Below are positions 40,347 through 41,973 of a stretch of 64,000 nucleotides of DNA, piece after piece. This stretch comes from Clostridium sp. (GTDB lineage: Bacteria > Bacillota > Clostridia > Clostridiales > Clostridiaceae), in NCBI RefSeq assembly GCF_036569345.1, contig NZ_DATCQT010000090.1, positions 4,201 through 68,200 on the forward strand. The letters are read 5' to 3'. Position numbers and translations under genes: made by a program. Numbering within the stretch: position 1 is the stretch's first letter; every line of letters begins with the position of its first letter. A model generated the notes under the pieces. That model worked only from the letters and a program-made list of their open reading frames with translations, ran no database searches and had not been told where the DNA came from.

Positions 40347-40880
40347 CTACATAAGAGCTTTCAGTTTCTCCAGTGCTTTTTTCTTAATTCTTAACAACTG
40401 ATAGTAGCTTTTATCACTATCACAGGCAACTTCCGAAAGGGGCTTTCCCAAAACATAAAACCCATCTATTATTGTACGCTCTAAGGGATCAAGAGTATCA
40501 AGAGCCACATTTAATTTTTTCACTTCCGCATAAGCTATCACTTCATCTTCTAAGGTAAATTCATAATTTCCTGCAGTATCGAAGTCTAACATATCATTGT
40601 TTGGGACTTCTCTAAAATGTTTTATTTCCCCTTTCAAAAGGGCTTTGAAATTCAATCTTATAGCATTTATACAATAGCCATTAAAGCTGTTGCTACCTAA
40701 TTTATACATCGCTATGGCTTTTACAACTGAAAGATAACCATGCTGAATTAAGTCTTCTAGTTCATATCCTGGAATGTGATATCTTGAAGCCTCTTTGATT
40801 ATTAGATACTTGAATTTTTCTATTATCTCGCCCATAGCACCATTATCTTTAGTTTTAGCCTTTTCAACTAGTTTTTCCAT
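40347..40880 (-). CDS. Alternative sigma-70 family factor (SigH-like/clostridial group-5-like)
   Basis: Region 2 YELEDLIQHGYLSVVKAI..SFNGYCINAIR; region 4 LDPLERTII..LSEVA..KKKALEKL. Confidence 0.8.
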   Translation of the reverse strand: MEKLVEKAKTKDNGAMGEIIEKFKYLIIKEASRYHIPGYELEDLIQHGYLSVVKAIAMYKLGSNSFNGYCINAIRLNFKALLKGEIKHFREVPNNDMLDFDTAGNYEFTLEDEVIAYAEVKKLNVALDTLDPLERTIIDGFYVLGKPLSEVACDSDKSYYQLLRIKKKALEKLKALM

Positions 40881-40978
40881 AATATACACCCACCTTTTTA
40901 ATTTTTAATTGGATATATTCAAAGATAATTTATTAGTGCTTGTCCTAATAACTATCTTTAAATTAATCCCTTCACATA

Positions 40979-41446
40979 TTAGCCAATGAGAGGTGTAGTT
41001 TGGTAACCAGATTTATTTAAAAGTTTTCTCAGCTTGTTAAGAACCTTCTTATTCCTTTTAACAATAGCTACATGTGAAACGTTTTCATTTTTTGCGATTT
41101 CTCTAACTGTAAGTTTTTTATAGTAAACATTTTTTATGAAATCTTGCTCTTTAGGGTTTAGTTCTACCATAGCCTCCTGTAAAATAATAAGCATTACTTT
41201 ATCGCATATAATATCTTCTATAGTTTTGTCATCTGTAAAATCTGTTCCATGCTCCATTAACCTATCAATAGAATCCTCTTTACTCGGAATAAAAGTAGTA
41301 ACCCCACTTTCTTCATTAACATCAATACGTCCAATCTTGATGTCGTTTTCCATATACCTCTCTCGTCTTGCCATTTTGTAATACTCTTTGTATATCTCCT
41401 CACTTACCTTTACTAATTCACTACCAATTTTAATAACTTTGTTCAT
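40979..41446 (-). CDS. Sigma-70 region-4 HTH protein of the type found in Firmicute integrative elements
   Basis: VSEEIYKEYYKMARRERY, LNPKEQDFI..TVREIA..SHVAIVKR; start at ATG 41446, 8 nt after GGAGG. Confidence 0.78.
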   Translation of the reverse strand: MNKVIKIGSELVKVSEEIYKEYYKMARRERYMENDIKIGRIDVNEESGVTTFIPSKEDSIDRLMEHGTDFTDDKTIEDIICDKVMLIILQEAMVELNPKEQDFIKNVYYKKLTVREIAKNENVSHVAIVKRNKKVLNKLRKLLNKSGYQTTPLIG

Positions 41447-41493: not shown

Positions 41494-41595
41494 AAAAAAA
41501 AATAGCCAGGCAACAGCTAAAATTAATTAGCTGTTGTCCGGCTATTTGGTCACTCATGGTGCCATTGCTAGTCACTCATGGTGCCTTTGCTCGGT
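41494..41595 (-). promoter_or_regulatory. Attenuator-like leader element 2 (conserved box, 22-bp tandem repeat, terminator)
   Basis: Minus strand accgagcaaagg box, two 22-bp copies (41549-41570, 41571-41592), hairpin atagccggacaacagcta/tagctgttgcctggctat plus T-run. Confidence 0.7.
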
Positions 41596-41637
41596 ACGTT
41601 AATGTATTGTTCTTTCTGTTAACCCTAAAAATTAGAT

Positions 41638-41715
41638 AAAAAAAATAGCCAGATAACTACTTTAAATAAGTAGCTATCCGGCCATTTGGATGTTCACGTG
41701 ACTCCATTGCTCGGT
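41638..41715 (-). promoter_or_regulatory. Attenuator-like leader element 1 (conserved box plus terminator)
   Basis: Minus strand accgagcaatgg..ccaaatggccggatagctac/gtagttatctggctat plus T-run; homologous to element 2. Confidence 0.7.
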
Positions 41716-41724
41716 ATAAATGAA

Positions 41725-41880
41725 CTATCTTGTATATGTTTTTTTTATTGAACTTTTCTCTAAGTTAACTTTTGCTATCTTTCTGCAATAGGAACATTTA
41801 ATAGATATATCCCCATGTGCGTTCTCCTCCTTATCAAATAACCTATGGTCACAAATTGGACATTTTACTTGTTGAATCAT
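41725..41880 (-). CDS. 51-aa Com-like zinc-ribbon protein (missing from ORF track)
   Basis: Hand translation MIQQVKCPICDHRLFDKEENAHGDISIKCSYCRKIAKVNLEKSSIKKTYTR; two CxxC pairs; RBS aggggga. Confidence 0.8.
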   Translation of the reverse strand: MIQQVKCPICDHRLFDKEENAHGDISIKCSYCRKIAKVNLEKSSIKKTYTR

Positions 41881-41944: not shown

Positions 41945-41973
41945 ATTATACAACCGAACATGAGTTCGGTCAA
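41945..41973 (-). promoter_or_regulatory. SigA promoter TTGACC-N17-TATAAT with a LexA (Cheo/SOS) box in its spacer
   Basis: -10 at 41945-41950, -35 at 41968-41973; CGAAC-atga-GTTCG at 41955-41968. Confidence 0.85.

Follow-up and report, generated by a model that had tools for sequence, protein, structure and literature searches.

Tandem terminator-overlapping RNA elements behind a Com-like zinc-ribbon gene in Clostridium: a proposed protein-dependent antitermination switch

Results and Discussion

We found, in the genome of a Clostridium species, two homologous RNA elements that lie in tandem between the gene of a 51-amino-acid zinc-ribbon protein and two sigma-like genes, and that each share nucleotides with the terminator directly behind them. 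We propose that each element is a protein-dependent, site-specific antiterminator, an ON switch that would need the small protein encoded just upstream (probability about 0.6). What the sequences display is the anatomy of the locus, folds of element and terminator that exclude each other, covariation in helix P1, hairpin P2 and the terminator, linkage of the protein gene to the RNA, and homology of the protein to Com of phage Mu. Judged by sequence comparison, the RNA element is a widespread, undescribed family of about 40-60 nt and not a local oddity.

Two homologous elements lie between the zinc-ribbon gene and the sigma-like genes

The window (the whole stretch of 64,000 nucleotides that was analysed, contig NZ_DATCQT010000090.1) contains the following features, and all genes at the locus are on the minus strand. 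The two sigma-like genes are inferred targets.

41945-41973, minus strand: near-consensus sigma-70-type promoter, TTGACC-17-TATAAT (-35 at 41973-41968, -10 at 41950-41945; 11 of 12 positions match)
41955-41968, minus strand: LexA (Cheo-type) box CGAACTCATGTTCG, read from the sequence, inside the promoter spacer and filling it
41725-41880, minus strand: gene of the 51-aa Com-like zinc-ribbon protein (MIQQVKCPICDHRLFDKEENAHGDISIKCSYCRK...), an ORF with two CxxC pairs and a basic tail
41677-41716, minus strand: proposed antiterminator domain of element 1, P1 (CCG-A-GC with GCCGG) enclosing hairpin P2 (from the fold and the R1 covariance model, 42.5 bits, E 2.3e-13)
41638-41687, minus strand: terminator 1, a 20-bp stem (41687-41643) and U8 (41645-41638), whose 5' arm begins with AAAUGGCCGG, the 3' strand of P1
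41537-41596, minus strand: proposed antiterminator domain of element 2, with P2 doubled by duplication (from the fold and the R1 covariance model, 50.8 bits, E 9.4e-17)
41549-41591, minus strand: 22-nt tandem duplication within element 2, comprising the P2 hairpin and part of the joining strand (repeat analysis)
41494-41547, minus strand: terminator 2, a 21-bp stem (41547-41500) and U9 (41502-41494), whose 5' arm begins with AAAUAGCCGG
40979-41446, minus strand: gene of a 155-aa protein with Sigma70 region 4 only, the proposed first regulated gene, with a ribosome binding site (RBS) and a start 41 nt past terminator 2
40347-40889, minus strand: gene of a 180-aa sigma-70 family factor (regions 2 and 4, domain match), the proposed second regulated gene

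The two elements have in common the pattern ACCGAGCAA-N-GG ... CCAAAT-R-GCCGG. Element 1 begins 10 nt past the stop codon of the 51-aa ORF and, with its terminator, spans 41716-41638 on the minus strand; it reads ACCGAGCAATGG-AGTCACGTGAACAT-CCAAATGGCCGG, followed by the 20-bp hairpin and eight U residues. Element 2 and its terminator (41596-41494, minus strand) read ACCGAGCAAAGG...CCAAATAGCCGG, followed by the 21-bp hairpin and nine U residues. Both hairpin regions fold far better than shuffled sequences (z -5.4 and -7.5), and a covariance model made from the copies of other genomes recognised element 1 at 42.5 bits (E 2e-13) and element 2 at 50.8 bits (E 9e-17). In the 4.7-Mb genome these two elements are the only places with the full two-box pattern, and a reversed control pattern is absent. 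A first-pass annotation of this DNA had described two homologous elements with common boxes, a long stem and a U-run, located between the zinc-ribbon gene and the sigma-like genes, and a 22-bp tandem duplication in the second of them. Sequence, folding and covariance model confirmed the elements; the 51-aa ORF at 41880-41725 and the start of the 155-aa gene at 41446 confirmed their location; and the duplication was recovered as two copies (41549-41569 and 41571-41591) that are 95% identical and 22 nt apart. Among the family variants that we listed, this duplication was seen solely in the genome of the window.

Neighbours of the module in the window are genes for an ABC exporter, an acyltransferase and a 566-aa secreted protein of transglutaminase-like type, the last being the first candidate for a gene that the sigma-like proteins switch on, and no integrase or relaxase was seen near the module; with such neighbours and no integrase or relaxase nearby, the module looks domesticated. 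The 51-aa Com-like gene (41725-41880) is below the usual ORF-length cut-offs.

Helix P1 shares a strand with the terminator stem

The family consensus is (U/C)A-CCGAGC-AAN-GG-[P2]-ACC-AAAUN-GCCGG-A, in which P1, a near-invariant 5-bp helix of CCG[A]GC paired with GCCGG, encloses the covarying hairpin P2. P2 opens with GG/CC and continues with three covarying pairs and then two more, each of these two blocks preceded by a bulged A; its loop is variable, and in some lineages a whole extra hairpin takes the place of the loop. In a gapless seed of 20 sequences 97.9% of the cells were paired and five pairs, all of them in P2, had changed on both sides; in the alignment of 99 model matches (76 distinct) the paired cells amounted to 96.8%, and 8 of 12 pairs had changed on both sides. 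None of 500 shuffles reached the covariation score of either alignment, and sliding the 3' partners in the 99-match alignment lowered the pairing to 16-48%. That alignment had been fitted to the model, which favours the structure; the covariation of P2 is nonetheless plain by eye. Collecting homologous leaders and testing them for covariation was a check that the first-pass annotation had put forward, as was an Rfam search. The former revealed the covariation just described, and the latter returned no matching family, either for the window (at E up to 10) or for five other loci (at E up to 1).

The near-invariance of P1 arose in part from our first scans, which fixed this helix. When the outer pairs were left free, compensated changes appeared in four copies, namely CCU...AGG in L212, L218 and L252 and CUG...CAG in the first copy of L212. 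P1 covariation is limited to these four sequences from a few related loci, and the invariance elsewhere is no evidence for or against pairing. Exceptions to P1 pairing comprise one copy with a G-U pair and two with a C-A mismatch.

In the minimum-energy folds of nearly all true copies, the N-GCCGG of the element formed the base of the terminator's 5' arm and was paired with CYGGC-N' of the 3' arm, and the N before GCCGG covaried with its partner in the terminator (A:U, G:C or G:U, C:G). Since these nucleotides serve both in P1, as its 3' strand, and in the terminator, as its 5' base, P1 and the terminator are mutually exclusive. In the first L212 copy and in L218, the changed base of the P1 3' strand (A) also faces a U in the 3' arm of the terminator, so that one nucleotide has two alternative partners and both have changed along with it. 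These shared nucleotides and mutually exclusive structures fulfil one test of membership among passive antitermination systems of the RAT/ANTAR type. The two conserved boxes, which the first-pass annotation had taken for parts of a double attenuator, are the two strands of P1, an arrangement with the geometry expected for antiterminators, and the computations support that reading. For element 1, P1/P2 alone had a folding energy of -9.4 kcal/mol, no better than shuffled sequences, versus -29.9 kcal/mol with the terminator. Because P1/P2 is weak relative to the terminator, termination would be the default and read-through would need something that stabilises P1/P2.

G-U pairs on the sense strand and the constant orientation of the element relative to the flanking genes point to a function as RNA rather than as DNA. 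Several other origins of the conservation were tried and rejected. Coding was dismissed because ORFs either terminate ahead of the element or extend into it in differing frames, ribosome-coupled attenuation because the stop codon lies anywhere from -41 to +115 nt from the element, and a promoter formed by the two boxes because their spacing varies by 30 nt.

The hairpins might also be plain strong terminators that end the small gene, with the conserved sequence before them serving as a processing or stability signal, as an insulator that borders a mobile element or as a DNA site, and with the sigma-like genes expressed from a non-sigma-70 promoter of their own. An alternative-sigma promoter would escape a consensus scan, and some orphan copies do lie beside host genes at the edge of an integrated element, which recalls the insulating terminator of Tn916 (PMC11658703). 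Such an arrangement leaves both the overlap of P1 with the terminator and the compensated P1 variants unexplained, and the covariation of P2, together with a length that varies by up to 30 nt, rules out a DNA site of fixed spacing. An independent promoter behind terminator 2 had also been raised as an alternative at the outset; only 41 nt separate this terminator from the start codon, which leaves no room for one, and the corresponding gap is below 75 nt in 28 of 66 loci. We consider plain terminators unlikely, and antitermination at each element remains the reading that we prefer.

The commonest subtype on mobile elements (L017:3424-3530 and many near-identical copies, in L014, L026, L063, L066, L113, L285 and others) carries behind the terminator a segment, CAUUCGGCUCU, and a U-run; the segment could base-pair with GGAGCCGAGUG, the 5' half of P2 together with its loop. 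This pairing would form a second, nested terminator-like helix that would also be disrupted by binding to P2; the window's copies lack a segment of this kind.

The element is patchily distributed among Bacillota, their phages and mobile elements

About 100 copies were collected from genomes of Clostridia and other Bacillota, from gut phages and from mobile elements. Within the same family, three other genomes carried the pattern, each time just past a small CxxC..CxxC ORF and in one of them in tandem. A pattern scan with one genome per species matched at least 120 stretches. Among the matches listed, about 75 were true copies, from Faecalibacterium, Ruminococcus, Oscillospiraceae, Lachnotalea, Clostridium, Peptococcaceae, Desulfitobacteriaceae and others; GC-rich matches in other phyla, without the flanking GG and without a terminator, were set aside as chance. 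Further copies came from IMG/VR contigs and from the GenBank gut phage PV036453.1 (Ca. Heliusvirales). Taken together, scanning by pattern and searching by covariance model gave 99 matches (76 distinct), which come from Clostridia and other Bacillota, from IMG/VR contigs and from this one phage. With the covariance model we obtained about 8 true matches in 399 genomes at the level of the class, and matches in 8 of 401 genomes at the level of the phylum. This patchy, sparse distribution fits carriage by mobile elements. Weak covariance-model matches under about 30 bits (L255-L275) were, on inspection, put down to chance, and a viral scan with the outer P1 pairs left free returned mostly chance matches, but was the source of the CCU...AGG variants. 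No match was found when the 551-nt region was compared by blastn with phage and plasmid records, when the common mobile-element copy was compared with plasmids, or when one member of the protein family was compared with plasmids by tblastn.

Tandem arrangements, in which each terminator has its own copy of the element, were found in the window, G092, L084, L212 and G954 (two copies each) and in L082 (three). In the last of these (L082:2439-2722, Eubacteriaceae), the three elements stand in series behind a single Com-like gene, and the first two have no convincing terminator. Near-identical copies of the Clostridia type were also present on short contigs of L023, L067, L069, L040 and L111, whose labels are Anaerolineae, Methanomicrobiales, Saccharibacteria and Bacteroidales (one is an archaeon); contamination of these bins by a common mobile element is the most likely origin of such copies in unrelated phyla. 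In Faecalibacterium (L012:4193-4257), a pemK RNA (Rfam RF02913, 72.7 bits) was located about 800 nt downstream of the element.

The linked protein is a homologue of Mu Com

The ORFs upstream of the element encode one family of proteins, with the pattern KCPxCxKRxFD...G.I.IKCPxC...V.I and a variable basic tail. Five residues (C7, C10, K28, C29 and C32) are invariant in the alignment of 39 relatives (A2). Comparison of A2 with Mu Com by hhalign gave a probability of 95% and an E of 3.4e-8 over the whole ribbon; 26 of the 39 members, the window protein included (E 4.7e-6), matched PHROG 6417 'translational regulator', and four matched PHROG 13819 'gpCom'. The window protein scored below the cut-off of Pfam Zn_ribbon_Com (PF10122; 15.7 versus 22.9 bits), which 6 of 39 relatives matched at E<0.01. 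AF2 modelled the window protein as a four-strand ribbon; the pLDDT is about 85 for residues 1-40, and the tail is of low confidence. A small protein with two CxxC knuckles that form a CCCC zinc ribbon, and sequence homology to Com, are two marks of the Mu Com family that are both present, and the assignment of the window protein as a homologue of Mu Com is supported at the level of sequence.

Pfam searches with the protein family returned zinc-ribbon families only, with no CAT/PRD or ANTAR domain, and there were weak profile matches to RpoP and Elf1. No solved structure of a relative was found; a profile search of the PDB gave generic zinc ribbons at E of 0.009 or more, and a Foldseek search only generic zinc ribbons with E above 2. 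In public sources most family members are unnamed, hypothetical or misnamed (Elf1, S27E, YacG and similar).

The gene and the RNA are linked in both directions. Seen from the RNA, 73 of 90 copies have a Com-like ORF that ends no more than 700 nt upstream on the same strand, and several of the copies without one sit at contig ends. Seen from the protein, six homologues that had been picked by the protein profile alone from 5.8 billion proteins all carry the element 5-200 nt downstream (51-63 bits). The proposal of the first-pass annotation that the zinc-ribbon protein is the partner of the RNA is supported by this linkage and by the homology to Mu Com, and no binding or read-through data exist for the pair. 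True orphans, with enough upstream sequence and no adjacent Com-like gene, number about ten copies, and in three genomes or bins with orphan copies the A2 profile found no Com-like gene. Two orphans (L046:2616 and L109:5842) lie at the junction of host genes and an integrated element, with an integrase fragment adjoining in L109; copies of this kind might insulate the integrated element from read-in, or might gain a Com-like neighbour only once the element has excised.

The clade with altered P1 (CCU...AGG, CUG...CAG) is accompanied by Com-like homologues that lack most or all of the zinc-binding cysteines, at the following places.

L218:10734-10892: zinc-less homologue, MKEVTVSCPEKKPAKVCKLVKEDSGIIYMKIKFPNTKELKINL...
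L282:1181-1348: zinc-less homologue, ...RPKRIFDMLLDDNGDLYIEIKLRK...
L252, about 125 nt upstream of the element: zinc-less homologue

No canonical Com-like member was found in the complete genome G474. An altered P1 beside an altered protein fits a cognate pair, and shared descent could explain it too; since linked gene and RNA share their ancestry, matching subtypes are not independent evidence of contact.

A small molecule or an ion could be the ligand instead, with P1, P2 and the conserved internal loop as a riboswitch and the zinc-ribbon gene as a mere co-transcribed neighbour. The compact, aptamer-like domain, with its near-invariant joining strands and bulged A residues on a classic terminator platform, would suit this, as would the roughly ten copies without an adjacent Com-like gene, and one membership test for riboswitches, a conserved aptamer-like domain joined to an expression platform, is met. 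The other, a described class with genes that point to a metabolite, is not: neither the window nor the five other loci searched match an Rfam family, and the genes downstream encode regulators (Sigma70_r4, HTH) rather than the transporters or enzymes that would hint at a ligand. A tight two-way linkage to one small protein of an RNA-binding type is unexpected for a metabolite sensor, and the pairing of the altered-P1 RNA clade with an altered, zinc-less protein also speaks against one. We regard a riboswitch as improbable and retain the Com-like protein as the proposed ligand.

Proposed mechanism of antitermination

Binding of the RNA by the protein, and read-through rather than termination upon binding, are inferences. 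By default, the nascent RNA would form the long terminator hairpin and RNA polymerase would stop, so that the promoter would yield only the short Com-like mRNA. Once enough of it has accumulated, the Com-like protein would bind the nascent P1/P2 domain, which is made up of hairpin P2, the near-invariant strands CCGAGCAA and CCAAAUNGCCGG and the conserved bulged A residues. With the protein bound, GCCGG would stay in P1, the base of the terminator could then not form, and the polymerase would read on. With two switches in series that both have to be occupied, a delay and a sharp threshold would be expected before the Sigma70_r4 protein and the sigma factor are made.

The protein could also act in reverse, by favouring the terminator or by tuning the stability or translation of its own mRNA, which would amount to negative autoregulation with read-through as the default or set by other means. 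The element does lie within the 3' untranslated region of the protein's own gene, and P1/P2, being transcribed first, might be the transient default fold. P1/P2 is, however, much the less stable of the two structures, and the terminator needs no help; doubled and tripled units suit the gating of downstream genes and not autoregulation. The RBS of the 155-aa gene, at least 25 nt past the U-run and outside any conserved helix, is not sequestered by the hairpins, and a translational role of the Mu type is not apparent. Reverse action is the least probable of the explanations that we considered.

Alternatively, protein and RNA together might load onto RNA polymerase and confer terminator resistance at a distance, as in lambda N-nut, conAn and canT. 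Small zinc ribbons often contact RNA polymerase, the weak RpoP and Elf1 profile matches would agree with this, and processive antitermination is used by mobile elements of Gram-positive bacteria (PMC8191782, PMC11658703). Here the element overlaps the terminator directly after it, and double and triple loci have a separate copy for each terminator, which a processive system would not need; judged by this layout alone, the expectation that one element serves several distant terminators is not borne out. The conAn paper mentions neither zinc nor cysteine. Processive action is, to our minds, very unlikely, although not quite as unlikely as the reverse action above. The conAn1/conAn2 system of pLS20 and canT of Tn916 likewise gate mobile-element genes through terminators, and conAn also consists of a protein and an RNA, but both work by altering RNA polymerase, with an effect on many terminators that are distant and unrelated (PMC8191782, PMC11658703), whereas the window's terminators each have their own overlapping element. 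We set both aside as processive and unrelated.

Site-specific antitermination, our preferred reading, has its closest parallels elsewhere. Like the BglG/SacY/LicT-RAT and ANTAR (AmiR, NasR, EutV) systems, the window pair has a short RNA that overlaps the 5' arm of a terminator, stabilisation by a protein (here proposed) that blocks the terminator, and one element acting on one terminator. It differs in its protein fold, which is unrelated and has no CAT/PRD or ANTAR domain, and in its RNA motif, which is neither RAT nor a dual hexaloop and is absent from Rfam, and these membership tests are not met. A further difference is that regulator and target share one transcript, on which the regulator comes first, directly ahead of the target, and the synthesis of the regulator itself would be both signal and delay. 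Tandem riboswitches and attenuators also place two or three complete switch-terminator units before one gene, with an expected sharper response, but the presumed ligand in the window is a protein from the same transcript and not a metabolite or tRNA.

Until now Com has been seen as an isolated oddity of phage Mu, a single gene whose product acts on translation, and our literature searches found no paper that links it to antitermination. Like Com, the window protein is a small CCCC zinc ribbon whose basic tail is disordered, and its gene lies directly before the RNA on which it is proposed here to act. Mu Com recognises and binds a hairpin in the RNA adjacent to its own gene, remodels the RNA structure (PMC6483171) and shifts a folding equilibrium in the mom mRNA. 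It opens a structure that inhibits translation, and this mark of the Mu Com family, activation of translation by exposing a hidden RBS, is not met here: the window target overlaps an intrinsic terminator and the RBS is free, so that control would be at the level of transcription. The RNA is also unlike the SELEX core reported for Com, GAG(N)2CC (PMC6483171), which the element resembles only loosely (GA-NNN-A-CC). The window protein belongs with Mu Com by homology and not by its proposed mode of action, for which there are no binding data.

If relatives of Com are antiterminators, they add a new protein fold to the few site-specific RNA-binding antiterminators, and a further structured RNA family, about 42 nt long and with its partner defined, becomes open to study. 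The system is small and self-contained (one 50-aa protein, one 42-nt RNA and a terminator), which would make it easily tested and a potential orthogonal genetic switch, and the zinc-less protein variants with altered P1 form a natural specificity series.

Genomic context and the putative LexA box

In about half of 61 loci, the next gene downstream encodes a Sigma70 region-4 protein (32 matches to Sigma70_r4_2 and 27 to Sigma70_r4); others have an HTH_11/DeoR-type protein or, occasionally, an excisionase or integrase. Upstream there is frequently a gene of an Xre-type HTH protein together with an ImmA-like M78 peptidase, which is the usual induction module of phages and integrative elements. 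In abundant gut Clostridia such as Faecalibacterium, Ruminococcus and Oscillospiraceae, the pair is placed where phages and integrative elements take their decision, between the repressor module and sigma-like master regulators, and from this place it could explain delayed, all-or-none induction of such elements.

Repression of the window's promoter by LexA is inferred, and the first-pass annotation had put the switch downstream of LexA control. In favour of this, CGAACTCATGTTCG lies in the promoter spacer, and the genome encodes LexA, with a similar box, AGAACAAATGTTTG, in the region upstream of lexA. Against it, only the window, 1 of 75 related loci, has such a box in the promoter, and genome-wide the strict palindrome is no commoner than a control pattern; the case for LexA therefore rests on position and consensus and not on statistics. 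Because the promoter carries this box, DNA damage would, in this genome, lead to the Com-like protein, from there to antitermination and finally to the sigma-like regulators.

As a wider hypothesis, to which we give about even odds, Com-type zinc ribbons and their zinc-less derivatives would be widespread, unrecognised, sequence-specific RNA-binding antiterminators, with the ~42-nt CCGAGCAA...CCAAAUNGCCGG element as their operator in Bacillota. In gut phages and integrative elements, the pair would be a timing gate that stands between a repressor module, either LexA or of the ImmR/ImmA-like kind, and sigma-like master regulators, and here it would have been domesticated into an SOS-induced sigma cascade.

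The sole other perfect CGAAC-N4-GTTCG in the genome is at G000:C139:11699-11730 (L300:1502-1545). It is directly followed by CGAACTCATATTTC, which is close to the window's box, and the site may be a double LexA operator.
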